A DNA stretch of 54,891 nt from a virus. Taxonomy: Duplodnaviria > Caudoviricetes. The translations under genes and the position numbers were made by a program. Shown here one piece after another: positions 4,027 to 53,745 of the stretch. The notes beneath the pieces are model-generated. The model had not been told where the DNA came from. It saw only the letters and a list, made by a program, of their open reading frames with translations, and searched no databases. Positions within the stretch are counted from its first letter, which is position 1, and the number at the start of each line of letters is the position of its first letter. The DNA is taken from positions 1-54,891 of IMG/VR virus record IMGVR_UViG_3300032173_000007; one strand, 5' to 3'.

Positions 4027-4038
4027 GGAGTTGAAAAG

Positions 4039-11378: not shown

Positions 11379-11580
11379 ATCCCCATCCAGGAAAAAGCCA
11401 AATTTAAAATCATACAAGCATTAACTTTAGTATCCGCTTCCGATTCTGAACAAACAAGTGGATCAAGTTGCGCTAAGGCGATGACCCCATCATCATTGGG
11501 ATCATAAACTGCCTTCAGCATATCTCCTGTCCCGCCGCCACCAACAACAGGTTTATCTAAATGACTTTTATTTAACATGG

Positions 11581-11871
11581 TTACCAAGCCCAAGCCCTGA
11601 TTTTATCACCACCAGTGGTTCCCTTAATAAAAATACTATTTTTGGTCGTAGTGTTTAGCGTCAAAGATTCTCCTGGCTTCAATTCCGCTTCTACTGTAGC
11701 ACCATCCCAGGAAGCTGATACTATATCAGTTGCTGAATCATTAGTTATCGTAATTGAATTTACTCCACCGCCAAAGACCCGCTCTACATAGAGATTGGTT
11801 GTTGTATATTCCTCATAGAAACTGATTGGACCGCCGACAATTTGAAATGGTCTCGATCCATCTTCAAACAT
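11581..11871 (-). CDS. Small beta-rich virion protein
   Basis: ATGA overlap with upstream gene; 'ITITND...LKPGESLTL'. Confidence 0.55.
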   Translation of the reverse strand: MFEDGSRPFQIVGGPISFYEEYTTTNLYVERVFGGGVNSITITNDSATDIVSASWDGATVEAELKPGESLTLNTTTKNSIFIKGTTGGDKIRAWAW

Positions 11872-12422: not shown

Positions 12423-12423
12423 T

Positions 12424-12786
12424 TTATATCTCCTGTCGGAAAATCAGCCGAATGGTTACAGTAGTAGCAGCCACATTAGCTTCAACCACCTTGAATCTTA
12501 TATATTCAGATAAGATCGGGCTATAAGGAACATATCTTCCGGTTGTTACACCCAAAGCTGTGGCAACTATTCCTAAAGCACCCCCAGCAGTATCTACCGG
12601 GTCATACCATGTTTCTCCATCAACGGAGCATTGCTGGCTGACGGTGATAGTGCCCGCCGTGGTGCTAATGATTACCGCCGCACTTCCTGCACATTCACGG
12701 AAAGGCACTGACATAGAATATCTTGTTGCGGCTTTTGCTACTTGTTCGTTCATTACGAGAGGGGTTTTTAAATATCCGCTTGCCAT
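12424..12786 (-). CDS. Beta-sandwich virion protein
   Basis: 'TITVSQQCSVDGETWYD...YIRFKV'; GGAGG SD. Confidence 0.6.
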   Translation of the reverse strand: MASGYLKTPLVMNEQVAKAATRYSMSVPFRECAGSAAVIISTTAGTITVSQQCSVDGETWYDPVDTAGGALGIVATALGVTTGRYVPYSPILSEYIRFKVVEANVAATTVTIRLIFRQEI

Positions 12787-12803
12787 TTGGTTTGCCTCCT
12801 TGG

Positions 12804-29784: not shown

Positions 29785-30984
29785 TTAGCCAATCAGTCTT
29801 ACAGCCAACTCGGGATACAGGGTCTTAACTCCATAGAGGATATCTAATCTGATGATTTCCTCATCCGCCTCGATATCGTATTGCTTCACGACTCGCATAC
29901 TCAACCCGGCATCAGGATCAGTTTCCCGAGCCCCCCAGACGCCCGAAGGCATTTCCAACGGGACAGTTACTAAGGCAAAGGCGTTGGGATGAAACACAAG
30001 GTTTTGAGGATAAAGGGTATCCTGAGTCCCAACGAAGGTTAAGGCTGCCGTAGTAAGTGGAAGGGCATCCACGTTGCTGTAAGGATCGGTAGCACCGTAA
30101 ACACAGGTTGGTGCAATGGGGATAGTCATATCCGCACCTGAATCGGCAGTATCTGTCCTTACCACCCATCTTTTCAATTCGCCACGGCTTACACCGGACA
30201 TAGGATTAACGGCGTTGGTGGCTGCTACGGTGAAAATATCACCGGCTTTCACGGTATTGCTACCAGACCAACCGTTGGTAACAAAGGAAGTCGCCCCGCT
30301 AGCCGTCGCTCCATTCATCACAGGAGTAGCGCCGGTGGTAAAATGACCGCAAGTATGCCGGGCAACGTTCTGGTCCATATAGATATGAAGGTTGGCAATG
30401 CTTCCCAGATAACCCTTAGTGATAATATCTTCAGCTACATGCTGGGCAAAAGTGCCTTTCAGTCCATCGGCCAGAGCCCAGTTGGCGGCTGGGTTTACAA
30501 TTGCCACCCTCGTATCTGTGGGGGCAGCTTCGTCATCAAGAACCCTCTGCGCCGCTCCAAGGGCGGAATAAGTTGCAGGAGTCGTTCCTGGGGTTCCGGC
30601 ATAATTGAAGACATCGACATATAGAGAGCAAAGATCGGCATCGATCTGGTTCGCAAGAGCTTCGGCCGCTGGCGAGATATATCTGTTGCTATAATCCTCG
30701 ATGGTAGTAGTTAGTTCAGCACTATTGAAAGCCCATGATACATGCGCCTGAGCGGATATCGTAATGGATGTGCTCGGCTCACTGATGTTTGTATTAGAGC
30801 GGGTTGCCGATTTGGTCGCCCGGAATTTATTAGGCTTTCTAATGGTGATTGTAGAACCTACTTTTACAAACTCATTCTTATACGCAGTATGGACATGCTT
30901 TGACATGGCCCTACTGTTGACTAACTGCATCAACGCTTCCTTGGCGATGATAGTTGGGGTTAAAAGCACATTAGTTGAAGCCAT
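29785..30984 (-). CDS. Major capsid protein, P22 coat family
   Basis: 'LTPTIIAKEAL.QL.N...KVGSTITIRKP...LANQID...RLDILYG...PELAVR'; 399 aa. Confidence 0.92.
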   Translation of the reverse strand: MASTNVLLTPTIIAKEALMQLVNSRAMSKHVHTAYKNEFVKVGSTITIRKPNKFRATKSATRSNTNISEPSTSITISAQAHVSWAFNSAELTTTIEDYSNRYISPAAEALANQIDADLCSLYVDVFNYAGTPGTTPATYSALGAAQRVLDDEAAPTDTRVAIVNPAANWALADGLKGTFAQHVAEDIITKGYLGSIANLHIYMDQNVARHTCGHFTTGATPVMNGATASGATSFVTNGWSGSNTVKAGDIFTVAATNAVNPMSGVSRGELKRWVVRTDTADSGADMTIPIAPTCVYGATDPYSNVDALPLTTAALTFVGTQDTLYPQNLVFHPNAFALVTVPLEMPSGVWGARETDPDAGLSMRVVKQYDIEADEEIIRLDILYGVKTLYPELAVRLIG

Positions 30985-35122: not shown

Positions 35123-35289
35123 GGAACTCTGGAATGTTTTGGTTTCCTATAGAAAATATTAGGTTCTGGTTCCTTTGAAACTTTTGGCTCTTCTATATTC
35201 GGAGTCGAAGGAATTCTTAGCTCTTCTGATTTTTTAAACTCAGGCCAGGGAGTAAATTCATCTGCATTTTCAGGAATATCAGTTTTCAT
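35119..35289 (-). CDS. 56-aa ORF coupling the portal gene to the enzyme cassette
   Basis: ATGA overlaps at both ends; MKTDIPENADEF...HSRVP. Confidence 0.5.
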   Translation of the reverse strand: MKTDIPENADEFTPWPEFKKSEELRIPSTPNIEEPKVSKEPEPNIFYRKPKHSRVP

Positions 35290-37652
35290 TTCAGGATAGT
35301 GAATCGATTATAAGGGTTAGTGATAATTACTTTCTTCTCTTCCGGCAAATTTAAAATTGCCTCTGGTTCATACTTATTGAAATAATCCCTTAATTCCCAA
35401 GGAGGATGCAGAGACAAAACAAAATCAGAAGGGGTATATACCCATTTACCCATTTCATTTCTTTCCCGGTGGCCTCCTGGCGTTTCTGGAGTCGAATAGA
35501 TGCTCTCATCGGAGAAGGTAATATGGTGCGGCAACTTGAATTCATCCGATAAATGCTCGCCTTTTGATTGATCGGGAAGATTACCATACTTAGCAATATA
35601 GCTTTCATAGTCATAATCGCCGGGAATGATGGTCCCGGTAGTCTGGGGCACCATTACCTCCGGCCCTTCTTCTCCCACCACATAAGGTTGGCCTTCCTGA
35701 ACCGGGCCACCCTCAGCCCTTGCTGGTATTTTTGTGGCAATTTGCTCTCCTTTGACAGCTTTTAATTGATTATCCAGCTGCAAACCTTCTAACCTGACCT
35801 TCTCTTGCTCAACCTGAATGCTTAATTCCTGCAATTTCAATTGCGCTTCCATAATTTTGGCTTCCAGCAAAGGGTCAGGAGGGGGAGCAGGGGCGGCAGG
35901 AGGGGGTGGAGGAGGTGTTCCCTTATTTTGGGCCCTTTCCGCTATTTTCTTTTCCCGTATCTCGGGTGGAAGCAAATATTCCAATCTTTCCGCCATTTCA
36001 TCGGCACCAGGCCAATCCATAGACTTAGCATACAAATCTCCGATTAAAGGTGCGGCCTGCGGATAGTATTGGATAAATTCACTCATAGATTGTCTTGCTT
36101 CGGTTCTCTGAGTGGTGAAGGAAGGTCCTACGGTAACCACCACATCATAGGTGCCCACAGATAGGTTGTGCAAAATCGGGCCGTCAGGGGTTGTTTCAAC
36201 ATTCACTGCTTCAAACTTTTGCAATCCACCTTCCAATCCCAACCGGATAATTCTTTCTGTGTCCAGAATTCCCGGCGCTACATCCACCAGAACCCGGCCC
36301 AGATGCTCTATGGAACGGGCAAGATTGTCAATAAAAGCAAAAGTCCCGACATCACCTTCCTGTTTCCGTTCCCGAATAGCAAGACCTGAGCGCTCATTGC
36401 TCGGCATACCGAGAGAGGCTCTGTGCAATCCTATGGTATCCCGGATTTCCTGGTCTGTTTCTCTCTTCATCTCTACCATAGCAGAAGAGACCTGGGGCGG
36501 TATCTCCCGTTTAGGGAATCCGGGAGCTTGTTCATCAGAATTGACCAACAAATAAGGAAAGTTCTTGCGGTGGGCTTCTTTCCATTGAGTTTCATGACCG
36601 GCTATTTGTTTCGGGGTGGCAAGATAGGGGGCTTTGGGAGCTAAGGCTACCATTTCAGTATCTGCCGATTGCCAGAAATTATACATTCGTTGGGGGTCTT
36701 TGGCGTTTCTAATCAATCCTCTTACTTTTCGTCTGCCGCCGATATTCAGTTCTTTCCCCCATACGGGGATGACCGGGATATATTTCTTCCCCACCCATTC
36801 TTTTTCATCCAGAATTTTGTTGCCGGACAATAGATACCACTTGATTTTGTAGCTTTTGACTTCGCGCTTCTTCGCTACAACCATCCACGGTTCCAATTTT
36901 TCTACGACAATGCCATCATCCAATTGATAGATGGTTTTAGTCGTCGGTTCCTTAACAAAATATTCAGCAACTCTGACTGTGTTGGCGCTGCACCAACCTT
37001 CTATATAGCGGCTATCGGCTTGGTTGAAGGGCATGGGTTCTTCACCATAGGTTTCCCTGAACTCATCTCTGTCCATGTCGGTAATGATGAAGCAATACTG
37101 GGCGTCGGAGCAATCATATTCAGAGTGCTTTCCCCAGAAGACGGCCAGGGCATTATCAATCTTCTGAATGCGGGCATCCTGTTCAAAAGAATCATCGCTT
37201 ACAAACTCTGTAACCACCCTCATAGCCCCATATCCGCAAGCTACGGCATGTTCAAAGGCATGATCTATGGCGGTATCAGCTTTTGATATTTGCTCAACAT
37301 GTTTAATCCAACCTCCCAGGATTTCAGCTATGGCAGGATCGGCTTTTGAATCTACCGGAATAACTTTGATTGAGGGGCGGTTCATGCGCTGATCACCAAC
37401 GACCTGATCAATGAAAATTGGCATCTTGTTAATACTGATGCAGGGCCTTCCATCCGCTTCTCGCTCCGCCCGGATGTTGGCCGGCCATTGAGCACCTTCA
37501 ATCCCGATAAATTCCAAATCCTCCAAGGCCAATCTGCGGTTTTCATAATCCTCATCCATTGCTTTTTTTAAGCGATCTCTGGCCTCCATGAGGATTTTTT
37601 CTTCATGGCTCAATCCGGCATCTATAGTTTTTATTTTTTTTGCCATCTCCAA
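35286..37652 (-). CDS. Portal protein, P22-like, with C-terminal extension
   Basis: 'QWP...R...RPCISINK...VVG.QR.NRP','KYIPVIPVWG','KDPQRMYN','YDVVVTVGPSFTTQR.E'. Confidence 0.92.
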   Translation of the reverse strand: MEMAKKIKTIDAGLSHEEKILMEARDRLKKAMDEDYENRRLALEDLEFIGIEGAQWPANIRAEREADGRPCISINKMPIFIDQVVGDQRMNRPSIKVIPVDSKADPAIAEILGGWIKHVEQISKADTAIDHAFEHAVACGYGAMRVVTEFVSDDSFEQDARIQKIDNALAVFWGKHSEYDCSDAQYCFIITDMDRDEFRETYGEEPMPFNQADSRYIEGWCSANTVRVAEYFVKEPTTKTIYQLDDGIVVEKLEPWMVVAKKREVKSYKIKWYLLSGNKILDEKEWVGKKYIPVIPVWGKELNIGGRRKVRGLIRNAKDPQRMYNFWQSADTEMVALAPKAPYLATPKQIAGHETQWKEAHRKNFPYLLVNSDEQAPGFPKREIPPQVSSAMVEMKRETDQEIRDTIGLHRASLGMPSNERSGLAIRERKQEGDVGTFAFIDNLARSIEHLGRVLVDVAPGILDTERIIRLGLEGGLQKFEAVNVETTPDGPILHNLSVGTYDVVVTVGPSFTTQRTEARQSMSEFIQYYPQAAPLIGDLYAKSMDWPGADEMAERLEYLLPPEIREKKIAERAQNKGTPPPPPPAAPAPPPDPLLEAKIMEAQLKLQELSIQVEQEKVRLEGLQLDNQLKAVKGEQIATKIPARAEGGPVQEGQPYVVGEEGPEVMVPQTTGTIIPGDYDYESYIAKYGNLPDQSKGEHLSDEFKLPHHITFSDESIYSTPETPGGHRERNEMGKWVYTPSDFVLSLHPPWELRDYFNKYEPEAILNLPEEKKVIITNPYNRFTILK

Positions 37653-37888: not shown

Positions 37889-39385
37889 TTACATTCCGAG
37901 ATAGGCGAGACCATCGGAAACATTATAATCTCTCCGAATTTTTTCAAAGGGCATGGTTTGGATTTTCGCTTGATAGCCAACGGCAAAACATCTCATCATA
38001 TCTGCCCCATGCACGGCAAAGTTTTGCAATGGTTTATTGTCCAGCTTCTGGTTTTCCTCATCCCATTCCGAGCGATAAGATTCCAGAGCCAGAATTAGCT
38101 TTGCACACTTTCGTTCGTCGAACACACATTGCCCGAGAATATTTCTAACTGCCTCAATACCGTTTAGGACTGCCTGAGTATCCCTTGCTCTTTTTACAAT
38201 TATGATAGGAGCAATACCAAGATTTTCCGCTGTTTCCTTACGAGAGAGAGCAACATCCGTATCTCCACCCAACTCTCTTTTCGCTGCATCATGGGGCATA
38301 TAATGGTCGCCGTATATATAGCCTTTTTCTTTCAAAACTTTTGCATAATGAGAAAGCCCCATGCCATAATTTTCATAATAGTCGATAAATCGGTATTCCC
38401 GGCCTATTTGCTGCATAAAGCCTATGGAGGTGGAGTCGTCAACCCCCAGATCCCAGAAGGTATAAACTTCATGGCCCTGAGAATAGGGAACCGAGCATAT
38501 GCGGCCTGCTTTCCTTGCCTCCGTCATCTGTCTGGCATAATAAACCCCCTTAATGTTGCGGTCGGTAATGGCTTCTTCCTCAGACGCCGGATAATTCTCA
38601 TTGATGTCCTGTTCGGTCATACCGGCCGCCACCATTTGCTCTCTGAAATCCTTGGGCCGGTAAGGATGGGCGGAATAAGGAAGAAAAATTCGCTTAAAAT
38701 TATTCAAACCCCTCATGGTTGCAATGTAAAGGTCCCGGGTCCAATACCATCCAGCCCCCTCCTTAATGGCATTGCTGATGACGATGACCTGACCTTTAGC
38801 CTGCTCGATGCCCGGATAAGAGGCATTGAAAATCGCTTTGGCTAAACGGTTTTTGCAAGTTTCATCCATGATGAGCAAATTGGGGGTTTTGGACTGCGCT
38901 CCCATTTCGGTGGTGGGAAGGCTTTTGATGGTAGAAGTGAGACCATTCTGGTGTTGGAACTCTAAAACTTGTTTGGTGCGGGTTTTGATGGGAGGTAGTA
39001 ACCAAGCAGGGAGGCGATCCATGATGAAATAAACTCGCTCTAAGAACTCAATACTTAACTCTTCGGTTACGGAAATGACAACCGCAAGATAGAGCGGATT
39101 TGTCATAATTTGCCATAGCACATATATGGCGACTATCCAGGTCAAGCCAAGTTGGCGGGCCTTCAAGATGATAAGCAGATTTGATTCGACCAGGGTAGGA
39201 ATGATTTTTCTCTGCTCAGGCCAGAGGCTCATTTTGATTGCCGTCTTGGTCTCTTTGTCCTCGATAAAAACATATTTATCGATAAAATATCGGAGGGATT
39301 TGATAACCTTTTTGCATTCACGAACCTTTTGTTCAAGGCTCAAATTATTCTTCTGTAGCATCAATCCGCTCCGCCTCAAATCCAC
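37889..39385 (-). CDS. terL: Terminase large subunit
   Basis: Walker A 'LKARQLGLTW', Walker B 'LIMDE', nuclease 'WDLGVDDST', 'MPHD', 'HGADMMR'. Confidence 0.92.
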   Translation of the reverse strand: MDLRRSGLMLQKNNLSLEQKVRECKKVIKSLRYFIDKYVFIEDKETKTAIKMSLWPEQRKIIPTLVESNLLIILKARQLGLTWIVAIYVLWQIMTNPLYLAVVISVTEELSIEFLERVYFIMDRLPAWLLPPIKTRTKQVLEFQHQNGLTSTIKSLPTTEMGAQSKTPNLLIMDETCKNRLAKAIFNASYPGIEQAKGQVIVISNAIKEGAGWYWTRDLYIATMRGLNNFKRIFLPYSAHPYRPKDFREQMVAAGMTEQDINENYPASEEEAITDRNIKGVYYARQMTEARKAGRICSVPYSQGHEVYTFWDLGVDDSTSIGFMQQIGREYRFIDYYENYGMGLSHYAKVLKEKGYIYGDHYMPHDAAKRELGGDTDVALSRKETAENLGIAPIIIVKRARDTQAVLNGIEAVRNILGQCVFDERKCAKLILALESYRSEWDEENQKLDNKPLQNFAVHGADMMRCFAVGYQAKIQTMPFEKIRRDYNVSDGLAYLGM

Positions 39386-39566: not shown

Positions 39567-40164
39567 CCGACTCTCCTTTCAGAACATTTTCCGGTATGAC
39601 ATTGACAACTCTGCTCTCCGGTGTATCCTTGCAGACTTTGCATCCTCTTAGATTGGTGAAGCGAATACTATCTCTTATCACTGAATTGGGAGCATCGCAA
39701 TCGAAATTAACCACTCTGTTTTCTGCCACCGCCTGATTAATAGCATTTTCAAGGCTGATGATGGTTTGTATCCGTTTCTTCAAGTTTTCTCCTCCTTTCT
39801 CTAATGAGCTAAGAATATCAAGAGAAGTTTGTAGCCGGGCAAGATTAGTTTTAATTTCCCTCATATTGGCGAGAATATCTGATTGAAGTTTCTCGATCTC
39901 CTGTCTCGCTTGCCGGTCTTTCATCTTCTGTCTCCTCATCGTCAAAATACATATCAATCCCGCATTCGCATCGATAGAGCCTCCCGTATTTAGAATGTTT
40001 AATGAATCTTTTATCGGTGGGTTGCATCAGGCGCCCGCACCAGCACCGAGGAAGAGACGTCATTTTTCCCCTCCCAGAATTTGCACCCTTTGTCCACTAT
40101 GGTGGGAGGAATTTGCTTTCCTTTCTCACCAAACCAGGTGCAGAAGCCGAGGAAGGTGTCAGAA

Positions 40165-40509
40165 CTATTGATGTTCTGGAATCGGCAGGTCCAGCAATTC
40201 ATCGTCAAAGTGTAGATGGTTATCCCGTAGAACCTGAAAGAGTCCCTCCGCCAACTGGTCTATTGCGGTATCGGCTAAACTGGTTTCAAGGTAGCGATAA
40301 GTAATGTGGTGGAGAATCTCATGAAGAAAAGTTGTTGCCAGGTCAGATTCCGTTCTGAATCTCTTGTCTGTGGTAAGGCGGCTGAGTTCGATAATCCCGG
40401 CACCGCCAATAGAGAGCCCGGCAACGAAGTCATTATTCAGAATACAGGTATCGATAACTCGAATGTCTATCCAATGTCCGGCAATTTTGATTCTATCGGG
40501 AATCCTCAT
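40165..40509 (-). CDS. HExxH zincin-like metallopeptidase
   Basis: 'IPDRIKIAG...TFLHEILH...QVLRDN'. Confidence 0.75.
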   Translation of the reverse strand: MRIPDRIKIAGHWIDIRVIDTCILNNDFVAGLSIGGAGIIELSRLTTDKRFRTESDLATTFLHEILHHITYRYLETSLADTAIDQLAEGLFQVLRDNHLHFDDELLDLPIPEHQ

Positions 40510-40887
40510 AGGTCTCCTTCCATTACCAAAAGGTCAGGCCATCGGGCCAGAATGGACTCTGCTTCCTGGGGAGTAGTAGCTTGCTCAAGCAAGTCTTCAA
40601 GTTCGTCCATCAGTTTCTCCTCTTCAGGAGAAGGTTGACGGAAGATGACAGCTTTTGGGGCTTTGATATTCCCACCAGCGGGCGACCAAACAACGTCATC
40701 GATGGACATTATTTCCACGGCGACCTCCCATAGAACATTTTACGTGAAAAGGCATCAAAAATGCGCTCAAAAAGTGATGCCTGAGTGGGATTCATTGTTG
40801 CCGGGTCCTGCCCTGATTCATCCGGGTGAATCTTTTTAACGGCTCTTACCATATCTTCATAGAACAATTTACCTGCTTCGGCAGGCG

Positions 40888-41172
40888 TCAAAAAGCGGTT
40901 TGGCATAAGATAAACCTCCTCAACCAATGTAAACCTTGGTATTCTAATTGGTAAATTCGCACTGGAGTAACCTCATTACTATCGGCTAATTGGCGCACGC
41001 TCATGCCATAAGCTCTGGACATTAGAATTCCATAAAGTCTTGGTTGTTCTTCTTCTAATCGCAACAAAGCTGGAGGAAGGTTAAGTTTATCGTAGTGAAA
41101 ATCGATTCTTGAGTGTTTTTTAGTAATAACCCAATCAACCATTTTTTCTATGTCTTCGTCTTGTAGGCTCAT
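40888..41172 (-). CDS. Sigma-70 region 4-like HTH protein
   Basis: 'RAYGMSVRQLADSNEVTPVRIYQLEYQGL..LR' resembles sigma r4; GGAGG SD. Confidence 0.65.
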   Translation of the reverse strand: MSLQDEDIEKMVDWVITKKHSRIDFHYDKLNLPPALLRLEEEQPRLYGILMSRAYGMSVRQLADSNEVTPVRIYQLEYQGLHWLRRFILCQTAF

Positions 41173-41832
41173 GAGTTACCCTCCATTTTGTTGAAAATTT
41201 GTAAGTGAGGTCATTGGGAATCTAAAAATAATAATTCGAGCGGGGGGGGATATGAAAATTTTTCCAAGGGCTTCGCCTGGCCCCCATACCCCCGGGGGCC
41301 CCTCGCACGCACGCCCTCGTTCCTTTTCTCCCCGCCCCACCCCCCGCCTTCCGCCCCCGTCGCTTCCCACCTTGACCCCCCGGGCCCCTTGGGCCTTAGC
41401 CATTTGCTTCTATGATCCAGCCTCGGCCTCGGAACTTGACCCCAAGTCCCGATCCGGGGCCAAGTCTTGATCCGGGGCGAAGTCCCGACCTCCCTCACGA
41501 CCTCCGACCTCCCTGCCGACTTCCCGATCCCGCTCTCTCGCACAAAACGGCCCCAAATTGCCACGATCTCTTGGGGGGTAATGGTTATGTATTACCTCCA
41601 ACCAATCCCGCCTAAAAAGGGCCGTTCTGTTCATTTTGCCGATCCACATTATCATGTTCCTGTAATACTTATTATGTAATGGGTTATCATAACCCCTTGA
41701 TTTTACTGCTTCTGCTGTTTCACTCATAATAGCTCCTTGTGGATAACTTGGGGATATCGGTAAGTGGGACGGAATCATTATTACTCACCCCACTATCGCC
41801 TAAACCCTTAATTCTAAAGGCCGGCTTGTCTC

Positions 41833-42390
41833 TTATTGCTCTATCTCTATCTCATCTTCTTCCGCTTCCGTTTCCCGGATCGCACTCACCACCATCGCCA
41901 TGATGCCCACGTTGATGTCTACCTGGGACTGCTCCTTGAGGTGCCCCTTAAGCTTAGCGGCAAGCTCCAAAGTTTTGCGTTGGGTTTCCAATGCGGGGGC
42001 TTGGCGCTCCAGGATGACCGGCTGACCGTCCTGGCTGGTGGAGAAAAAGTGGGTAGCCTGAGCGTCGAGGAGGGCGCGAACCTTGTCGGCTAAAAAATCG
42101 TCCGTGATGCCTTTTTCATGCAAAGTAGTGATAAATGGCTTTATATGCTGAGGATTCCTGAGCAGCGCACAATTCCCACTCCTCGCTACCGTTTCAGCAT
42201 ATCCCGCCTCTCGCAGCGCTTCGCTTTGGCTTTTCCCAGCCAGCAGGGCAGCCGTAAATCTACGAGCCCTTGTTTTTATACCAAATGCATTTTTGGGTAA
42301 GTGGTGAGTCGGCTGATTTCCCCCCGCCTTATTACTCTTCTTGCTCCCGCCCTTCTTACTCATTCCTACCCCTACACTACTAGTATTCAT
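41833..42390 (-). CDS. Terminase small subunit (probable start 42363)
   Basis: 'RF...LLAGKSQSEALREAGYA' HTH, 'TLELAAKLKG'; near the start of the late operon. Confidence 0.7.
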   Translation of the reverse strand: MNTSSVGVGMSKKGGSKKSNKAGGNQPTHHLPKNAFGIKTRARRFTAALLAGKSQSEALREAGYAETVARSGNCALLRNPQHIKPFITTLHEKGITDDFLADKVRALLDAQATHFFSTSQDGQPVILERQAPALETQRKTLELAAKLKGHLKEQSQVDINVGIMAMVVSAIRETEAEEDEIEIEQ

Positions 42391-42400
42391 ACTTTTGCTT

Positions 42401-42429
42401 ACTATAAGCTAGATCTTAGCTAAAAGCAA
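42401..42429 (-). promoter_or_regulatory. Sigma-70-like promoter upstream of the small terminase
   Basis: Minus strand TTGCTT-N17-TATAGT. Confidence 0.4.
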
Positions 42430-42449
42430 GACTCTCCTCCTATCCTTCC

Positions 42450-42668
42450 TTAAGGTTTCCTTTCCCCCCCTCCCTCCTCTCCTTGCTCTTTGTCTTCTAT
42501 GTAGAATATCCAATGATTTTTCTTTTTAACTTCCACCAAGATCACCTTATTTCCTTTTTTGCAAACAAAGGACGGCCAGTTCTGTTTATCGATGATCCAA
42601 TCGTGTGCCTCGGCCGCTTGGCAAAAAGTTTCCTCTGCTTTGAATTTTTCACATTTTTTCGGATCCAT
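42450..42668 (-). CDS. Small degenerate PD-(D/E)XK-like protein
   Basis: 'WPSFVC...ILVEVK'; Ser where the PD Asp is expected. Confidence 0.45.
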   Translation of the reverse strand: MDPKKCEKFKAEETFCQAAEAHDWIIDKQNWPSFVCKKGNKVILVEVKKKNHWIFYIEDKEQGEEGGGERKP

Positions 42669-42754
42669 CGCCTTCTCTTCTAATCTAGGTCTTCTATCTT
42701 GTCAAGCATTTTTTCTTATCCAACATCTTACTACCCCTCATAGTAAATGAGGAA

Positions 42755-42789
42755 AATCAAGGACTTAGCAGCCTGGCATAGGCCTTGCA
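42755..42789 (+). promoter_or_regulatory. IHF site plus sigma-54 promoter 1
   Basis: AATCAAGGACTTA (WATCAANNNNTTR) at 42755-42767; TGGCAT-AGGCC-TTGCA at 42774-42789. Confidence 0.65.
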
Positions 42790-43003
42790 TGTTATATCAA
42801 GCTGTGATAAAGATCAAGCAAGGTCAGATAGCTCATTTTCCACCACTTTTTGACAAATTGGCAGATGCCCATAGAAAGGCCTCCATCAAGGCTTTTGAAG
42901 CTTTTCATCTTGCGGGGCCCTGTTTTTTACCTTCTAACCTCTCGATTTCAAAGGGATTTGACATCTTGTCAAAAAAGTGGTGATTTTCAACAGTTTTTCT
43001 GCA

Positions 43004-43020
43004 CGCAAGACTTATGCCAA
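43004..43020 (-). promoter_or_regulatory. Sigma-54 promoter 2, pointing toward the late operon
   Basis: Minus strand TTGGCAT-AAGTC-TTGCG. Confidence 0.6.
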
Positions 43021-43028
43021 CCCTTAAA

Positions 43029-43073
43029 AATCAAGTATTTACGATTTTGGACACAATTGGCACGGGGATTGCA
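43029..43073 (+). promoter_or_regulatory. IHF site plus sigma-54 promoter 3, driving the early gene array
   Basis: AATCAAGTATTTA at 43029-43041; TTGGCAC-GGGGA-TTGCA at 43057-43073. Confidence 0.75.
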
Positions 43074-43229
43074 TATAATAGAAGGCAGGCAGTTAACCAA
43101 AAAAGGAGAGCGAAAATGAGAAACGGTTTAGGAACTGAATGGGTAACCCCCGGGCTTGAGCCGCATGCGTTGTATTCATTAACTAAATTCAAGATAACCG
43201 GGGGCCGAAGGGCCCCCAAGGAGGGAAAG

Positions 43230-43430
43230 ATGGAAAGAAAGTTAATGGTCAAGCAGTTGGTGGGCAAAATTCAAATCAAATACGGGCTTGCTCATCTTTA
43301 CGAGAGTGGTGAGCCGGGTTGGGTTGTAATTCGGCCCCTCTTGCCTTCCGGCTGCGAGGGGGGCTTAGAATTTGCATATAAACGAACAGATTTTAAGCCC
43401 GGAGCTTTGCGCAAGGCTTTACGAGTATGA
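43230..43430 (+). CDS. Early array gene 1 (in-frame upstream start possible at 43116)
   Basis: Hairpin-AAGGAGG then MERKLMVKQ. Confidence 0.65.
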   Translation: MERKLMVKQLVGKIQIKYGLAHLYESGEPGWVVIRPLLPSGCEGGLEFAYKRTDFKPGALRKALRV

Positions 43431-43471
43431 ATTAACCTTAACTCGGGGCCGCAAGGCCCCAAGGAGGGATC

Positions 43472-43834
43472 ATGAGCAACTATAGAGAAAAAGAGTTTTG
43501 TTCTGATTCTGGTCTAACATTTCCCGAAGCTTACCAACTACACAAGAAGTTGTGGAGTTGGCTGGCAGAAAATCCCGGTTGCTGTAAACGAGATTGGCCG
43601 GGATGGGCAGAAAACGGCGGTGATGCGCCACCCGTCTTGAATCATTGTTTTGCTTGCGAGATCGCTCAAGCTGCTAAACGGGGAGATTGTACTTTGTGTC
43701 CGATCGAATGGCCGGGCGGGTATTGTGCAAATGAGCAGAGTCCGTTTTCCAAGTTTTGTAATGCCCCTGATATTCCTAAGCGGGTGGCTGCTGCTCAGGA
43801 AATAGCCACACTTCCTTGGCGAAAACGCAGTTAA
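43472..43834 (+). CDS. Early array gene 2, Cys/Trp-rich protein
   Basis: H..LW.WL.ENP, CFAC, CPIEW, EIATLPW; paralogue of 49706..50107. Confidence 0.8.
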   Translation: MSNYREKEFCSDSGLTFPEAYQLHKKLWSWLAENPGCCKRDWPGWAENGGDAPPVLNHCFACEIAQAAKRGDCTLCPIEWPGGYCANEQSPFSKFCNAPDIPKRVAAAQEIATLPWRKRS

Positions 43835-43871
43835 CTAACCGGGGGCCGAAAGGGCCCCAAGGAGAAAGAAA

Positions 43872-44156
43872 ATGGTATATTACTACATTGGGGATGGGAA
43901 AAAGTTTGACACAAATGCCCATCAAGTCATCTACGCGGATGGGCATTACTCCTCTCGCGGAGTGAGATACTATCTCACCCGCGAAGGAAGGATAGTGTGC
44001 GAACAATGGTCTCGTTGGCAAGGTGAACACGACCATGCCAGGGAGATTACCGTCGAAGAGTTTCTACATGACATGTTCCTTTCTCCGCATCCTGACCGGG
44101 CGGAGAGGGCGATTCGGATCGCGGGCTTGCAGACTCGCGTTCCGGATTTCAAATAG
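43872..44156 (+). CDS. Early array gene 3
   Basis: Hairpin-SD upstream; 'YYLTREG...WSRWQGE'. Confidence 0.75.
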   Translation: MVYYYIGDGKKFDTNAHQVIYADGHYSSRGVRYYLTREGRIVCEQWSRWQGEHDHAREITVEEFLHDMFLSPHPDRAERAIRIAGLQTRVPDFK

Positions 44157-44209
44157 AGAGAGTGACAATTAACTAACCCGGGGGCCGAAAGGCCCCCAAG
44201 GAGGGGAAA

Positions 44210-44416
44210 ATGGACGAGGGGCTTAAAAGCTTCTTAAAAGAATTGGACGAAAGACTCCGCCAAACAGGTGTTTGTCCGAATTGTGGGAAGCCACGCTCTG
44301 GCATCCTACGGCCGAAAGGAAATTATCGGGCCCGAGGATTCCGGGGCAACGCTTACTACGAACCGGAGGGGAGAGAAGAAGCTGGAATGTGCACTTGCAA
44401 AATAAAAGAAAAATAA
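44210..44416 (+). CDS. Early array gene 4, small Zn-binding protein
   Basis: CPNC...CTC; hairpin-SD upstream. Confidence 0.7.
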   Translation: MDEGLKSFLKELDERLRQTGVCPNCGKPRSGILRPKGNYRARGFRGNAYYEPEGREEAGMCTCKIKEK

Positions 44417-44449
44417 TCAAAAGAGGCCGCAAGGCCCAAGGAGGAAGTC

Positions 44450-45034
44450 ATGATTAGAATTATATCTCACGATCTCTCAAACTCTTGTTCGGTTGCCCGG
44501 CACGGCCGGCAAACTTGGCTTGTCGGGCGGGAAGGACAGCAAATCTTCGCTGTCCGCATTCGAGCAAAAAAAATAAAAACATTGGACGAAGCACTTGCCT
44601 GGCTTCGCCCGGAGGATGTGCCACACTATGCCCTCCGGCAAGGGGATTTATATTTCGTCCCCCTGCCGGGTTGGAGTCCGCCACTTTTGACAACCAACCT
44701 CACCCGCCCCGATTTCTCGGACGCGATAGAGTTCAATCAGCCGCCGCCTCGGACCTGGCGACGGACTTGCTGTCAAGAGTTTTCCCGTTTGCCTGCCCAT
44801 TCTCACCGCCTCGAGCAACCGGGGCGGGTAGTATGGGACGAAGGGGAAACTGCCTTCGTCGGGCGAAAAGGCGTAAGGTCACACCCTTGGAGAGGCCGTC
44901 CGCGTTATTTCGTTCGCGGACGCATAACCCACCCCGAGCACGGAATGCTCGACGTGGGTTATATTTGGCACGAAGTTGTGCCAAACAGGGCCGTCGGCCC
45001 GTGGCGGGTCGACCAAAGGTGGCAAGGAGATTGA
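44450..45034 (+). CDS. Early array gene 5, 'RQGD...HxH...HPEH' protein
   Basis: Motif set suggests a metal-binding beta fold; hairpin-SD upstream. Confidence 0.7.
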   Translation: MIRIISHDLSNSCSVARHGRQTWLVGREGQQIFAVRIRAKKIKTLDEALAWLRPEDVPHYALRQGDLYFVPLPGWSPPLLTTNLTRPDFSDAIEFNQPPPRTWRRTCCQEFSRLPAHSHRLEQPGRVVWDEGETAFVGRKGVRSHPWRGRPRYFVRGRITHPEHGMLDVGYIWHEVVPNRAVGPWRVDQRWQGD

Positions 45035-45067
45035 GAGCGGGGCCCGCAAGGGCCCCAAGGAGGGATC

Positions 45068-45517
45068 ATGTATTCTCTACAAACCTATCGTATTCAGTTG
45101 CAAGCAAGAGAAGCAAGAGAAAATTTAGGCACGGCATGTAATCCGAAGAGCGTAGTAGCCATTGCTGAAGCGCTCTTTCAAGATTTAGATGCCGATCGGG
45201 AGCATTTTGTGCTCTTGTGTGCTGATACGAAGAACAGGATTTACGCTTATAAAGTCCTGTTTTCAGGCACTCAAGACAGCACAATGGTGGGAATCAAAGA
45301 AACCCTGCGAGCAGCTCTGCTCCTTGGCGCAGCAGCGATCATCATTGTGCACAACCACCCAAGCGGTGATCCCACTCCCTCCGAGAACGATAAAACAACA
45401 ACCCGGAACGTTGGGCGGGGATGTCGAGAGATTGATCTAAGATTTATAGATAGCATTATCCTTGGCGAAGAAAATTACTTTTCTTTCGCCGAAGGAGGTA
45501 AGTTAAATTCCTTATAG
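45068..45517 (+). CDS. radC: RadC-like JAB-domain protein (early array gene 6)
   Basis: 'DREHF...AAIIIVHNHPSGDPTPSEND...DSIILG'. Confidence 0.92.
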   Translation: MYSLQTYRIQLQAREARENLGTACNPKSVVAIAEALFQDLDADREHFVLLCADTKNRIYAYKVLFSGTQDSTMVGIKETLRAALLLGAAAIIIVHNHPSGDPTPSENDKTTTRNVGRGCREIDLRFIDSIILGEENYFSFAEGGKLNSL

Positions 45518-45533
45518 GGATAATGCTTGAACG

Positions 45534-45564
45534 AAAAGAGGGGCTGAAAAGTCCCTCTTTTTTT
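45534..45564 (+). terminator. Rho-independent terminator, probably bidirectional
   Basis: AAAAGAGGGGCT-GAAA-AGTCCCTCTTTTTTT between convergent units. Confidence 0.8.
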
Positions 45565-45660
45565 ATGCCTTACTCATACCGCTCGATTTATCCGCTTCCC
45601 AGTTTGGAATATCTGGTATGCGGCGGTCTTGGGATATCTGGTATGCGGCGCAATCTGGAA

Positions 45661-46029
45661 TCAGGCCAAATCGTGGCAGGCGCAGTAAGCCGTCTTGTTC
45701 CACTTCCCTAACTTTTTCCCGCACAACTTACACTTACCATTCCGGAGACGATTACCCAACCTTGGCATTGCTAAAGTCTTGTCAACACGCTTCTCTTTGA
45801 TTGGCTTGATAAATATTGCAAGCTTCAGGCCCTCATCCCCTTGGTGGCTGATAACCAAAGGCTCCAATCTTGGGTCTCCAGCAATCCTGTCCTTTTCTAA
45901 CCTAATCCAATCCTTCCCTTTAACCAAGCCTTCTGAAGTTGCAATCCAACCACCCGAGCTAATCCATAGTGTTAGTTGGTGATAACCCTTCGGCACTTTA
46001 GGTTTCGACATCTTTAGCCCCATTTGCAT
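45661..46029 (-). CDS. Hypothetical protein with C-terminal zinc finger
   Basis: CKLC...CACH. Confidence 0.6.
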   Translation of the reverse strand: MQMGLKMSKPKVPKGYHQLTLWISSGGWIATSEGLVKGKDWIRLEKDRIAGDPRLEPLVISHQGDEGLKLAIFIKPIKEKRVDKTLAMPRLGNRLRNGKCKLCGKKLGKWNKTAYCACHDLA

Positions 46030-46243
46030 GCCCTACCTTTTCTCCAATCTGTAGCCTGAAATGTAGCCAACCTAATGAACATTGCTAAGTATTTAATTTT
46101 ACTAAAGAATATTTATATAAAATATAATATAATAGGGGTTATAGTATTTTTCTTGTTTTTTCATCTCTCTTTTATAGAGGTTTTTCATTCCGCTTTGCAA
46201 CGATGGGCATTGGCGGACAAATCGAGCCTGGCTACGGGTTTGG

Positions 46244-47698
46244 CTACATTCGGCTCTTATGTGAAGGGATATACCAGGTGTCTCTCTTCTTATCGTAGCG
46301 GACTTCACCTTCCTTCAAGAGGTTTTCTTTTGCTGCATTGAACAAGAAAATACCATAGCGATCGGCGTGGGCATATTGCCTCAGTTCTCGGGAGTTAAAG
46401 TTGCGCTTCATCAGCATTCGCCTGATTTGATCCTCAATCTTGGCGACAATATTCTCGCAGCCAACCGGATCGTATTCCCCGCGGATCTCTCTTTGCCAAA
46501 GCAGCAGCTTGATGACTCGCTCAGCTATATCTTTACTAATCTCCTCAACCTCTTCATTAGCCGCAAAGATTAGCATCAGCCGGAGGCCATAAGTATCAAG
46601 CCGCTTGGAGTGAATACCACGGGCGTCATCTGACATATACCAGGTCTCATAAAGAGATAAAGCCTCCGAGGTCATGGGGATGGTAGTCTCTTCACGATAA
46701 TGATAGAGACAGGCATTAACCCGGGCGGCAAGGGCTGATTGTCGCTCATAAGGCACTTCCTCCGGGACAGCAAAGCGTCTTATGGCCCGGTCAGCGGTTA
46801 GCCAAAGCCGATTGATAAATCCGATGTCCGTGAATATCGGGGAAAACATTTTAGTAAAAGTATCGACGGTTGAAGCAGCCAGGATGGAAAGTGAGCCCTC
46901 CTCAATGTTAATCGCATGGGTTTTGGTAATTGACTGAAAACGAATGTCTTCAAAGAGCGTATTAACTGCGGGAAGAAGAATAGCGGCTTCAATATTAGAT
47001 TTGGAAACAAAGGTCTTGAACTCATCGAATACTAACAGCACTTTCCGATCTTCTTTGAGCTTTTCGGCCAGTCCTTCAGCGCTGCCTACACCATAACACA
47101 GTCCCAGATCTTCCAACAAGCCAAAACGCCTGAAAAAATGGACTGTTTGTTTTATCGCTTCAGATTTACGGTCATCCGCAGACTCTCCTAAGATGACCGA
47201 ATAAAGCCGAGGTTGGGTAGTAAGCGATGATTTCAATCTCAGCTTATCACACAACAAGGCTCCTAAGATGGTTAAAAATGATATTGCCCAGAAGCTCCAA
47301 GGGGCTTCCAAGCGGGACGCAAATAAATCAGCAAACTGCTCGGCCAGACCTCGAATCAGGAGCTGATCAAGCGGAGGTTTGCTCTCGGCGGTTTTTTCCG
47401 GGGGAATTCGTGCTGCCAATTCCTCAAGGGCGGTGGTGATATCCCCTGGGTCCCCCAATGATGCGATATCCCAGGCGTATGTGCAGGTTATCTTGCCTCC
47501 GCCATTGCCTTCCATGATAGCCTCTGCTATCATTTTTAAATCGACTCTTTGGCCACCCGATAGTTTCCAACATAGTTCATACAAAGCTCGGTGGCGGGGG
47601 TCATTGAAACAGTCGGGCGAGAGGATGGGGCCTATAACACGGATTGACTCATGACTATTGAGAATCTTAGCCAGCACAACTTGTTCCAAGTCGTCCAC
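46244..47698 (-). CDS. Replication protein: DnaB N-terminal-like domain plus DUF3987-like P-loop domain
   Basis: N-term 'EQVVLAKIL...LSPDCFNDPRHRALY'; 'GESADDRKS', 'SAEGL', 'LVFDEF', 'GFINRL'. Confidence 0.7.
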   Translation of the reverse strand: MDDLEQVVLAKILNSHESIRVIGPILSPDCFNDPRHRALYELCWKLSGGQRVDLKMIAEAIMEGNGGGKITCTYAWDIASLGDPGDITTALEELAARIPPEKTAESKPPLDQLLIRGLAEQFADLFASRLEAPWSFWAISFLTILGALLCDKLRLKSSLTTQPRLYSVILGESADDRKSEAIKQTVHFFRRFGLLEDLGLCYGVGSAEGLAEKLKEDRKVLLVFDEFKTFVSKSNIEAAILLPAVNTLFEDIRFQSITKTHAINIEEGSLSILAASTVDTFTKMFSPIFTDIGFINRLWLTADRAIRRFAVPEEVPYERQSALAARVNACLYHYREETTIPMTSEALSLYETWYMSDDARGIHSKRLDTYGLRLMLIFAANEEVEEISKDIAERVIKLLLWQREIRGEYDPVGCENIVAKIEDQIRRMLMKRNFNSRELRQYAHADRYGIFLFNAAKENLLKEGEVRYDKKRDTWYIPSHKSRM

Positions 47699-47701
47699 CT
47701 C

Positions 47702-47842
47702 TCACCCCACTTTCGCTAAAAACTTCTTGAGACGCCGATATTCTATCAGTTCCTGCCGGATGCGGTCTCGATACTTCTTCCGCCACCTTTGGGCGGCCTT
47801 CAGGCGCTCTTCTTCTGTATGATAAAGTCTTTTCCTTCCCAT
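47702..47842 (-). CDS. 46-aa basic helical protein, not in the ORF track
   Basis: AAGGAGG SD then MGRKRLYHTEEERLKAAQRWRKKYRDRIRQELIEYRRLKKFLAKVG. Confidence 0.65.
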   Translation of the reverse strand: MGRKRLYHTEEERLKAAQRWRKKYRDRIRQELIEYRRLKKFLAKVG

Positions 47843-47923
47843 ATACCAACCCTCCTTTCCCCCCTATTATCCATAGTTTTCTGCTGTTGTCAATCTTTTT
47901 TTAGCCTCCTGTGTTTTTTTGTC

Positions 47924-47952
47924 TTGACATGCTGCAAATGCTATGCTATAAA
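47924..47952 (+). promoter_or_regulatory. Strong sigma-70 promoter with extended -10
   Basis: TTGACA-N17-TATAAA preceded by TGn; a divergent TTGACA lies on the minus strand at 47888-47893. Confidence 0.75.
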
Positions 47953-48015
47953 GGAATTGCAGACTAAGGTCAAGTTAATGGGTTATGGGAGTTATTAACA
48001 AAGGAGAAACTTATC

Positions 48016-48711
48016 ATGAAACTCTATAAGCTGACCGATAGCAATGATCGGACGTATGGCGGTTGTCAGTGGGGCGAAAATATAACCCATGAAACTTCCG
48101 GTCAGAGTGAGATTTGCGGCCCCGGTTGGACTCATTGGTATAGCGACCCTTGGGTTGCCGTTTTCCTTAACCCAGTTCACGGAGAGTTCGACCTGAAAAC
48201 TGCTCACCTGTGGGAAGGTGAGGGAGAGATGGTAATTCATGATTGTGAACTCAAAATAGGTTGCACCAAAGCCACAACGCTGAAACGAATTCCACTCCCT
48301 GTCCTGACACCTGAACAAAGGATAGAAATTGCTATTCGCTGCGTCCTTCTGGTGTATGAAGAACCAATATTTGTGCAGTGGGCACAAAAATGGCTGTCTG
48401 GTGAAGATAGATCAATGGAGGTAATTAAAAGAGTGAAAGAGATAGCATGCTCAAGAGAGGAAATAGCTTGGGTAGGCAAGGCAACAGAGGCGTGGTGGTC
48501 CGCCAGGGCAGCGGAGCGAGCGACGGCGGCTGCGATAATTTTCACAAATTTACAAAAAGATATATGGGCATACTATCGAGAAAAAGGAGAATTGCAAGTC
48601 GCAAAAGCAGCAGCCCAAGCAGCAGAAACAGCAACATGGACAAAAGGTAGCAAAGTCAACTTACGGTCTGTTATCTACGAAGTGGTAAAAGATGGCAAAG
48701 AAGAATTCTGA
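48016..48711 (+). CDS. Hypothetical protein, DUF7666-like N-domain and Ala-rich helical C-domain
   Basis: 'LYKLTD...CGPGWTH..D','WAQKWLSGEDR'. Confidence 0.65.
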   Translation: MKLYKLTDSNDRTYGGCQWGENITHETSGQSEICGPGWTHWYSDPWVAVFLNPVHGEFDLKTAHLWEGEGEMVIHDCELKIGCTKATTLKRIPLPVLTPEQRIEIAIRCVLLVYEEPIFVQWAQKWLSGEDRSMEVIKRVKEIACSREEIAWVGKATEAWWSARAAERATAAAIIFTNLQKDIWAYYREKGELQVAKAAAQAAETATWTKGSKVNLRSVIYEVVKDGKEEF

Positions 48712-48783: not shown

Positions 48784-48799
48784 CGGCACAGATATTGCA
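48784..48799 (+). promoter_or_regulatory. Sigma-54-like promoter 4
   Basis: CGGCAC-AGATA-TTGCA; two TGCAACA copies upstream; predicted start site about 3 nt before an SD-less ATG at 48813. Confidence 0.5.
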
Positions 48800-53517: not shown

Positions 53518-53745
53518 ATGAAAGACTTTATACTTAAAACTATTGTTGCGACAATAATGGGTTTGATGGTTGGAGGAATTGTCGCCCTATCTATTATTTA
53601 TTTTTTCCATCCTGCGCCACCATGGGCTTTTCTAAATGGTTTTTACTGTATGGAGTGGTATATGTATTGCAAGATTTGTAAAAATCTCGCCTTGGAGGCG
53701 GCTGCGGAGGAAAAGAATAAATTGGCCTGCCTTCATCAAATCTAA
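53518..53745 (+). CDS. Small membrane protein
   Basis: Hydrophobic N-terminal half; GAGG SD. Confidence 0.55.
   Translation: MKDFILKTIVATIMGLMVGGIVALSIIYFFHPAPPWAFLNGFYCMEWYMYCKICKNLALEAAAEEKNKLACLHQI

Follow-up and report, generated by a model that had tools for sequence, protein, structure and literature searches.

Six perfect GC-only hairpins set against the Shine-Dalgarno sequences of consecutive small genes in a sediment-metagenome phage: possible insulators of one mRNA

We describe an array of six GC-rich hairpins, each placed at the ribosome-binding sequence of a small gene, in the genome of a tailed phage. The window (the whole stretch of DNA that we analysed, 54,891 nt) is a complete virus record, IMGVR_UViG_3300032173_000007 of IMG/VR, and it originates from a sediment metagenome. 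A hairpin scan identified six perfect GC-only hairpins, with stems of 4-7 base pairs (bp), before six consecutive genes on the plus strand; together they span 43200-45068. Each hairpin runs almost directly into the Shine-Dalgarno sequence (SD): in units 1 to 6, the gap between the hairpin and AAGGAG is 0, 0, 0, 0, 1, and 0 nt. The start codons (ATG at 43230, 43472, 43872, 44210, 44450, and 45068) are each 11-13 nt past the end of the hairpin, and the spacers between the genes are 25-41 nt long. A sequence-only reading of this region had reported the same six hairpins, an AAGGAG within a base of each and then an ATG, and a TAAC ahead of the first four. When we reread the sequence and scanned both strands, the coordinates, stems, and loops were all as written, and the flanking motifs were confirmed.

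All six units are on the plus strand. Unit 1 (43195-43229) consists of TAACC, the hairpin GGGGGCC-GAAG-GGCCCCC (43200-43217; 7 bp; predicted folding energy of -16.7 kcal/mol), and an SD at 43218-43224. In unit 2 (43433-43471), TTAACCTTAACTC is followed by GGGGCC-GCAA-GGCCCC (43445-43460; 6 bp; -13.3 kcal/mol) and an SD at 43461-43467, and in unit 3 (43831-43871), TTAACTAACCG is followed by GGGGCC-GAAAG-GGCCCC (43842-43858; 6 bp; -13.3 kcal/mol) and an SD at 43859-43864. Unit 4 (44169-44209) has TTAACTAACCC, the hairpin GGGGGCC-GAAA-GGCCCCC (44180-44197; 7 bp; -16.6 kcal/mol), and an SD at 44198-44204; its hairpin is preceded by TGA, TAA, and TAA, which cover all three frames. The shortest stem is in unit 5 (44425-44449), which lacks TAAC and has GGCC-GCAA-GGCC (44425-44436; 4 bp), a single C, and an SD at 44438-44444. 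Unit 6 (45039-45067) has GGGGCCC-GCAA-GGGCCCC (45039-45056; 7 bp; -16.6 kcal/mol) and an SD at 45057-45063. Five of the six hairpins thus have folding energies of -13 to -17 kcal/mol, and unit 5 has just -6.7. From the upstream stop codon to the hairpin there are 14, 7, 23, 8, and 4 nt in units 2 to 6. Exact identity between units extends over 9-20 nt, and units 2 and 6 have the longest stretch in common (20 identical nt, extending past the SD).

The genes that follow the hairpins encode small proteins, most of them without recognizable relatives. g1 (43230-43430, +; 66 amino acids) has no family match; g2 (43472-43834, +; 120 amino acids) is rich in cysteine and has one homologue among 5.8 billion proteins; and for g3 (43872-44156, +; 94 amino acids) we found no homologue besides itself. 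g4 (44210-44416, +; 68 amino acids) has a CxxC...CxC pattern, and its sole match is a sub-threshold YacG-like one. g5 (44450-45034, +; 194 amino acids) belongs to a rare phage family, with six homologues at 36-43% identity among 5.8 billion proteins. Its neighbours in the Atlas are for the most part viral hypothetical proteins; one structural neighbour cluster is mostly from Planctomycetota, which is a lead only, for the host. g6 (45068-45517, +; 149 amino acids) has a RadC-like JAB domain (Pfam PF04002, E = 1.7e-35; PHROG 10276). The family and homologue searches therefore agree with the sequence-only reading that the cargo is a set of unrelated small proteins that includes RadC, as the last gene. 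Its label for them, host-takeover or anti-defence cassettes, found no support: among the cargo just RadC is recognizable, and PADLOC returned a weak JAB match alone.

Upstream of the array, an exact match to the sigma-54-type -24/-12 motif (TGGCAC-N5-TTGCA, 43058-43073, +) lies 43 nt ahead of an ATG at 43116 and, judging from the sequence, is likely to be the promoter of the array. That ATG begins a leader open reading frame (ORF), g0 (43116-43229, +; 38 codons), which has its own AAGGAG and no hairpin. It continues in frame through hairpin 1 into g1, and the joined product would have 104 amino acids. A variant contig in the sediment run X3 has a 6-nt in-frame insertion at 43122, in g0. In a promoter scan of 41500-48500, we found no sigma-70-like site on the plus strand between 43100 and 45100. 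Downstream of g6, a hairpin with a T-run (45533-45565, +; -19.3 kcal/mol) is the predicted terminator; it lies between g6 and a convergent ORF on the minus strand (45661-46029) for which we found no relative in metagenome contigs. Because the stem has an A-run before it and a T-run after it, the terminator could act both ways. The motif match and the predicted fold are in line with the arrangement proposed in the sequence-only reading, in which the array begins at a sigma-54 promoter and finishes at a single terminator. The same reading had argued that the six hairpins themselves are not terminators, and this holds: none of the six is followed by a U-tract, and the terminator of the operon has one.

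The hairpins are not a chance feature. We scanned both strands of all 54,891 nt for stems of 4 bp or more that consist of GC pairs only and have an SD-like word no more than 8 nt away. Besides the array, the record contains only two such stems, both of 4 bp (17158 on the plus strand and 30566 on the minus strand). Perfect GC-only stems of at least 6 bp occur six times in the genome, with five of the six in the array; in 100 dinucleotide-preserving shuffles, the mean was 0.41 and the maximum was 3. The sole perfect 6-bp GC hairpin outside the array (5769-5783, GCCCGC-TAT-GCGGGC) has no SD adjoining it. At 35 sites, AAGGAG is followed by a start codon that opens an ORF of 40 codons or more; a hairpin is present at 6 of these 35, and the 6 are consecutive. 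AAGGAG is therefore the ordinary SD of this phage, and the special part is the hairpin with the upstream TAAC motif, of the type TTAAC(T/C), alone. A covariance model of the six units, which was built from these same six, matched just these six in the window. Over the whole window, no Rfam family matched at the gathering score, and a search of 42600-45700 with E values up to 1 gave just terminator-like sub-threshold matches at 45462-45631.

Pairing is kept in these elements while the sequence changes. The arms are always perfectly complementary although the stem length varies (4, 6, 6, 7, 7, and 7 bp), and one internal pair is swapped in both arms (GGGGGCC/GGCCCCC versus GGGGCCC/GGGCCCC). We describe these compensatory changes from the sequences themselves; MAFFT alignment leaves the 3' arms of unequal stems unaligned. 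The loops differ between strands. They had been called GNRA-like, and four of the six are strict GNRA on the sense strand, with the remaining two falling outside that definition; on the antisense strand none of the six is GNRA. In other contigs, we counted GNRA or UNCG loops in 37 perfect hairpins that come with an SD and an ORF: 7 have such a loop when read on the sense strand, and none does on the antisense strand. Of 54 instances there without an ORF, none has such a loop in the sense orientation and 5 have one in the antisense orientation. In most of the non-selected units of other arrays, the G-run is on the 5' arm. The loop polarity and the compensatory changes, together with a G-T pair in the contig L037 (see below), point to folding of the sense transcript. 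Furthermore, the spacing between the GGCC cores is 4, 4, 5, 4, 4, and 6 nt, and this variability is ill-suited to a dimeric DNA-binding protein. The suggestion in the sequence-only reading that selection acts on RNA structure is thus strengthened: the arms co-vary, and other arrays hold quite different stems at the same place.

The same design recurs with other cargo. Pattern scans of IMG/VR found the hairpin joined to AAGGAG at 19 loci and joined to AAGGGAG at 10 loci, in single copies only, and a pattern scan of metagenomes found at least 118 loci, so that there may be further arrays. Among the matches listed, 39 of 123 distinct instances lead into a start codon with an ORF of 40 codons or longer; the hits are mostly single and often coincidental. 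Four contigs have arrays in which stop codon, hairpin, and SD succeed one another on one strand: L037 (four units), L137 (three), L002 (four), and L033 (five). In none of these four did we find a protein shared with the window. In L037 (1168 nt), the unit pattern is TA(A/G)C-ACCCACC-GGGGGCC-GCAA-GGCCCCC-AAGG(G)AG. One of its units has a quite different 9-bp stem, GCCCGGGTC-GCAA-GGCCCGGGC, with a G-T pair that forms on the sense strand only, and in another (unit c) the 5' arm is broken and the 3' arm and SD are kept. In L002 (a record of 36,290 nt), all three pattern matches are within 2.5 kb, and the array was seen after a looser scan. L033 has five intercistronic hairpins at 11315-13758 (+), in a contig with 70% GC. 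These are runs of 6-8 G and C (e.g., GGGGGGGC-TAAA-GCCCCCCC) that start 5-6 nt past the stop codon and end 9-13 nt ahead of the SD. Across the four contigs, hairpins mostly start 3-8 nt past the upstream stop codon and end 0-13 nt ahead of the SD. Stems and loops differ inside a single array, which argues for a structural role and against sequence-specific recognition.

Dense arrays of this kind were few among the loci that we compared, and the bare hairpin is common. By strict criteria, at least four units within 3 kb were present at 3 of 278 loci (2.24 Mb, mostly chosen for having one such hairpin). The bare hairpin GGGGSCC-GCAA-GGSCCCC occurs at 119 or more IMG/VR loci (L159-L277). Among the matches listed for it, 105 instances are distinct. 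A T-tract follows 36 of them, 7 have an SD 3-11 nt away, none abuts an SD, 60 have other surroundings, and 2 are imperfect. The bare hairpin is so widespread that it looks like a generic phage building block, and the unusual feature of the window is a series of six, set flush with the SD. Two other contigs, L048 and L006, have one hairpin unit per multi-gene operon. In these operons, the SDs of the other genes are immediately preceded by an A/C-rich spacer of the TAAACC type, an arrangement that g0 shares. The hairpin therefore resembles an optional piece inserted between this spacer and the SD. The terminator in L048 has a T-run. Just upstream of its sigma-54-like motif and hairpin-SD unit, L048 also carries a gene (307-753, +) that fuses a VRR-NUC nuclease to a Fis-type HTH_8 domain; an ORF in the window (42450-42668) weakly resembles the nuclease part (pairwise E = 0.02).

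Relatives of the phage show how variable this region is. In five IMG/VR contigs with large terminases (TerL) that are 74-79% identical, neither the hairpins nor the cargo genes are present (0 of 5 for each). The equivalent region of one of these relatives, L022, has a sigma-54-like promoter and small genes with different spacers and no such hairpins. We found no match to 42700-45600 of the window in the GenBank phage collection and no relatives of g5 in an IMG/VR search; distant g5 homologues in the viral contigs L144-L148 have no hairpins in front. We also compared contigs from four sediment runs, one of which (X1) is probably the source sample, with 40000-48000 of the window, at 80% likeness. 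In another run, X2, a contig from a closer relative (called X2 below) is about 87% identical over 42748-43100 and departs at 43100 straight into a 7-bp hairpin unit, so that the unit comes directly after the leader, without the g0 stretch. This hairpin has the arms of unit 4 with the loop reversed (TTTC) and is followed by AAGGAT. In a second contig of that run, 43858, where hairpin 3 ends, is connected to 45535, next to the terminator; this is a hint only, as the shorter side of the joint is 30 nt and such joints are often spurious. In X2, 1.9 kb in the small terminase region (40523-42440) is also skipped or replaced, with flanks (40199-40523 and 42748-43100) that are 87-95% identical; this region is mosaic. 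Another terminase relative, L024, has five tandem units of 141 nt (3874-4737; 77-89% identical) inside a minus-strand ORF upstream of the small terminase gene.

Our favoured reading, to which we give a probability of roughly 45%, is that the six elements would be nuclease-barrier or insulator hairpins that punctuate one polycistronic mRNA. We infer that the RNA folds in vivo and that the hairpins affect mRNA decay, processing, or translation. The mRNA would be about 2.5 kb long and would probably run from the sigma-54-type promoter at 43058 to the terminator at 45533-45565, with a hairpin occupying the short spacer between the stop codon of one gene and the SD of the next. The hairpins would act through their stability and not through their sequence. 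Each could block 3'-to-5' exonucleases and so spare the cistron upstream. If an endonuclease cut in the A/U-rich UUAAC(U)AAC spacer, the hairpin would also block 5'-end-dependent decay of the cistron downstream, and locking the G/C-rich spacer in a hairpin might keep the adjacent SD out of long-range pairing. The outcome would be that each cargo gene lies between two clamps, as a self-contained expression unit. The reading draws on known cases: in E. coli, 5'-terminal stem-loops protect mRNAs from RNase E; intercistronic repetitive extragenic palindromic (REP) hairpins stabilise upstream cistrons; and both RNase Y and RNase E frequently cut in A/U-rich single strands beside a stem-loop. In all six units, the predicted energy needed to open the region from SD to ATG is lower with the hairpin than with the hairpin deleted, by 0.3-2.2 kcal/mol, which is weak evidence.

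Several points weigh against this reading. Relative to shuffled hairpins, the opening energy is lower in five of the six units, with differences of about one standard deviation, which is within the noise. Similar operons can do without the hairpins, as L022 has none and L048 and L006 have one for several genes. The reversed loop of X2 implies that the loop is not strictly constrained, and a plain stabiliser would have no need to abut the SD exactly. Furthermore, every ribosome that terminates has to melt part of a hairpin that begins 4-8 nt past the stop codon, and independent initiation could suffer where the SD has no single-stranded standby site ahead of it.

The sequence-only reading had left three functions open. 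Its first, an RNA processing site and stabiliser, is the most consistent with what we found; its second, a boxB-like binding site, is disfavoured, because loops and stems vary freely, both inside arrays and between them; and for its third, a recombination handle, there are indirect hints only. As a recombination handle, the TAAC-hairpin-SD stretch would provide short homology for the swap, gain, or loss of promoter-less cassettes, perhaps via the RecT-like protein of this phage (51073-51933), and any effect on expression would be secondary, in a manner similar to the cassette shuffling attributed to the PeSLs of T4-type phages (see below). We consider this unlikely, although it would account for several observations. 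The cargo genes are unrelated, rare or orphan, and missing from the five TerL relatives, and like units occur in contigs without any protein shared with the phage. X2 diverges at 43100 straight into a hairpin unit, and its joint from 43858 to 45535 falls at the end of hairpin 3. The broken 5' arm in L037 unit c is as expected of a joint inside a unit, and units 2 and 6 remain identical past the SD. However, the exact identity between units is just 9-20 nt, the X2 joint has a 30-nt side at 80% likeness and may well be spurious, and homology requires no perfect hairpins, compensatory changes, or sense-strand loop bias. A broader proposal joins both functions: stop codon, A/C-rich TAAC spacer, GC clamp hairpin, and SD would form a portable module that turns newly inserted promoter-less genes into stable, translatable stretches of the operon mRNA and also marks the joint at which unrelated phages exchange cassettes. 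This is a long shot in our judgement. If true, it would amount to an integron-like cassette system without an integrase, and it would explain the near-identical units beside unrelated orphan genes in the window, L037, L137, L002, and L033.

The remaining alternatives concern transcription, translation, or a bound protein. The hairpins could be leaky or factor-dependent transcription stops that, without a U-tract, pause or partly terminate the polymerase and cause expression to fall stepwise along the array. They do lie just past stop codons, the usual place for a terminator, and the hairpin GGGGSCC-GCAA-GGSCCCC precedes a T-tract in 36 of the 105 instances listed and hence serves as a terminator stem elsewhere. 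Even so, we find this decidedly doubtful: all six are followed by AAGGAG, without any U; bacterial RNA polymerases tested in vitro require a U-tract; the operon ends in a canonical hairpin and T-run, which implies that the host reads ordinary terminators; and six stops in succession would almost silence the distal genes, including the best-conserved one, RadC. (We also considered terminators for the opposite strand and rejected them: only units 1 and 5 appear in the minus-strand list, which has 12 sites versus 9.2 in shuffles, with a standard deviation of 3.0.) Translational coupling, in which the hairpin hides a standby region by the SD until a ribosome terminating 4-23 nt upstream melts it, and the translation of each gene is thereby tied to that of its predecessor, strikes us as improbable. 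It is true that the distance from stop to hairpin is short (14, 7, 23, 8, and 4 nt in the window; for other arrays, 3-8 nt in most cases), that the hairpin-SD spacing is zero, and that an upstream CC or CCUU can lengthen the helix onto the SD in some units, so that the SD of unit 2 is predicted to be mostly paired. But the SD is outside the stem in all six units, the first hairpin of L048 and of X2 comes after a leader and not after a gene, and because the cargo proteins look unrelated, equal stoichiometry would be of no obvious use. Protein-binding sites, either RNA hairpins for an N-like antiterminator or a translational repressor or else DNA palindromes for a repressor (stoperator-like or CIR-like), are quite improbable. 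GC stems with GNRA-like loops do resemble boxB, and GGCC-N4-GGCC is common to four of the six units. The start-associated repeats of Cluster K mycobacteriophages have also been proposed to bind a factor (PMC3203893). Yet loop sequence and length, stem length, and the spacing of the GGCC half-sites are all variable, quite different stems are mixed in other arrays, the loop is reversed in X2, and a single nut site per operon would suffice. Near the array, no gene for a candidate RNA-binding protein or repressor emerged when 40 ORFs were scanned with Pfam. Finally, the hairpins could be extruded from DNA to recruit a phage RNA polymerase, as in N4-type promoters, with one promoter per gene. In the N4-like phage LUZ7, the middle promoters are hairpins rich in GC, in which a stem of 6 bp or more carries a loop of 3-4 nt and the start site is 13-15 nt from the hairpin centre (PMC9163698). 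The likeness to our hairpins is clear, but this spacing would place the start inside the SD (AAGGAGG) and so remove the SD, and the AAGGAG at the same spacing is the SD of about 29 other genes. With no RNA polymerase in the Pfam scans of 40 ORFs, and no PDB sequence match for the 1743-aa ORF described below, we regard hairpin promoters as very improbable.

A second notable point is that this phage apparently uses sigma-54-type promoters. The exact consensus, TGGCAY-N5-TTGCW, occurs in the genome only at 42774 and 43058, both times on the plus strand and upstream of the array. The former (TGGCAT-N5-TTGCA, 42774-42789) has no obvious ORF directly downstream; both it and the motif at 43058-43073 have the GG at -24 and the GC at -12 that mark sigma-54 promoters. 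With one mismatch allowed, there are 10 matches versus 4.3 expected. One-mismatch matches at 7196-7211 (-), 43004-43019 (-), 47933-47948 (-), 48784-48799 (+), and 53656-53671 (+) lie in or beside intergenic regions and face genes. By eye, a similar motif is found at the matching place in L022 (TGGCAC-N5-TTGCT) and in L048 (TGGCAT-N5-ATGCT). Pfam scans of 40 ORFs found no enhancer-binding AAA+ activator. These motifs suggest that sigma-54-type promoters may be in general use in this genome, an unusual trait for a phage if so. The sequence-only reading had called the array genes early, and this is unsupported: the motif at 43004-43019 (-), in the same intergenic region, faces the packaging genes too. 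Upstream of the array promoter (42696-42982), TTGACA...TGTCAA words are found at 42696, 42849, and 42957-42975; in addition, CACCACTTTTT and AAAAAGTGGTG, at 42841 and 42972, form a perfect inverted pair of 11 nt. At the place in L022 that matches these repeats, there are three copies of TGGTGATTTTCA. The repeats may be activator or operator sites.

The plus-strand unit at 43058-45565, which is made up of the leader ORF and the six small genes, diverges from the small terminase gene (41833-42390, -). Other genes on the minus strand encode the large terminase (37889-39385), the portal (35286-37652), and the major head protein (29785-30984). The tail region has a 1743-aa ORF (12804-18035, -) with no PHROG family, no PDB sequence match, and one sub-threshold Pfam hit. 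We found no tRNA genes in the record. The sole match in genome contigs from the TerL alignment was a 2.7-kb fragment labelled as an archaeal metagenome-assembled genome, which is uninformative on the host.

We consider the element to be an intercistronic or start-associated cis element of phage accessory operons, and several known systems resemble it in part. As in an intrinsic terminator, there is a GC-rich stem-loop (4-7 GC pairs, -6.7 to -16.7 kcal/mol), followed here by (C)AAGGAG instead of a 3' U-tract. The boxB of the lambda nut site, in an early phage transcript, likewise combines a short GC stem with a purine-rich, GNRA-like loop. It is a single copy per operon next to boxA, its 5-bp stem and pentaloop are fixed, and N recognises it, whereas the array has six copies with variable stems and loops. 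We see four different loops, three loop/stem geometries, and the reversed loop of X2 in place of a conserved stem and loop. Profile searches found no N-like antiterminator, and N proteins are too short and diverse for profile libraries. Integron attC arrays are similar in that palindromic sites split promoter-less, unrelated small genes behind one promoter. They differ in that attC sites are imperfect structures of 57-141 nt, with conserved core sites and extrahelical bases, and have an adjacent IntI integrase. The hairpins here are perfect and 12-18 nt long, we saw no such core sites, and Pfam scans of 40 ORFs found no integrase. REP elements and the RNase III sites of T7 are structured intercistronic elements that delimit stable translatable segments, as we propose for the array. 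REPs, however, are imperfect palindromes of 35-40 nt in host chromosomes, as opposed to perfect GC clamps of 4-7 bp that abut the SD, and T7-type RNase III sites need a duplex of about 20 bp, which stems of 4-7 bp do not provide. The plastid intercistronic expression element (IEE) also delimits such segments, and it differs in that it is reported to work through a bound protein (PMC2230500). As for hairpin promoters of the N4 type, the predicted start would fall inside AAGGAGG and no RNA polymerase was detected (LUZ7: PMC9163698).

If the hairpins act as proposed, then a compact part of 12-18 nt, flush against the SD, would make each gene an independent expression unit. The many orphan-gene arrays of uncultivated phages would then be easier to interpret, synthetic operons could gain an insulator, and the array offers a testable way into the question of how phages extend an operon with new genes. 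That the design returns in several metagenomic contigs, with unrelated cargo, points to a general rule in how phage accessory operons are built. We found no description in the literature of a gene array in which GC hairpins abut the SDs, and one may still be in print. Next to closest are the promoter early stem-loop (PeSL) cassettes of T4-type phages, in which small stem-loop units flank small, non-essential orphan genes in a variable region and for which modular shuffling was proposed (PMC2839356, PMC4122927). A PeSL contains a strong sigma-70-like early promoter and a working terminator (PMC2839356, PMC4122927), whereas our units are much shorter, have neither a promoter nor a U-tract of their own, and share one promoter. 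The closest described case is the start-associated sequence (SAS) of the Cluster K mycobacteriophages, with its extended form (ESAS): a short repeat in one orientation, absent from the host, that lies at the ribosome-binding sites of many unrelated non-structural genes and includes the SD core (PMC3203893). SAS is a conserved, asymmetric sequence of 13 nt, and ESAS consists of imperfect 17-mer inverted repeats in which the variation does not support RNA pairing (PMC3203893). The SAS consensus, GGGATAGGAGCCC at 3-7 nt before the start (PMC3203893), is absent from our units, which have the AGGAG core alone in common with it. In the array, the SD is the phage's ordinary one and the sequence varies, while the pairing is perfect and compensated.

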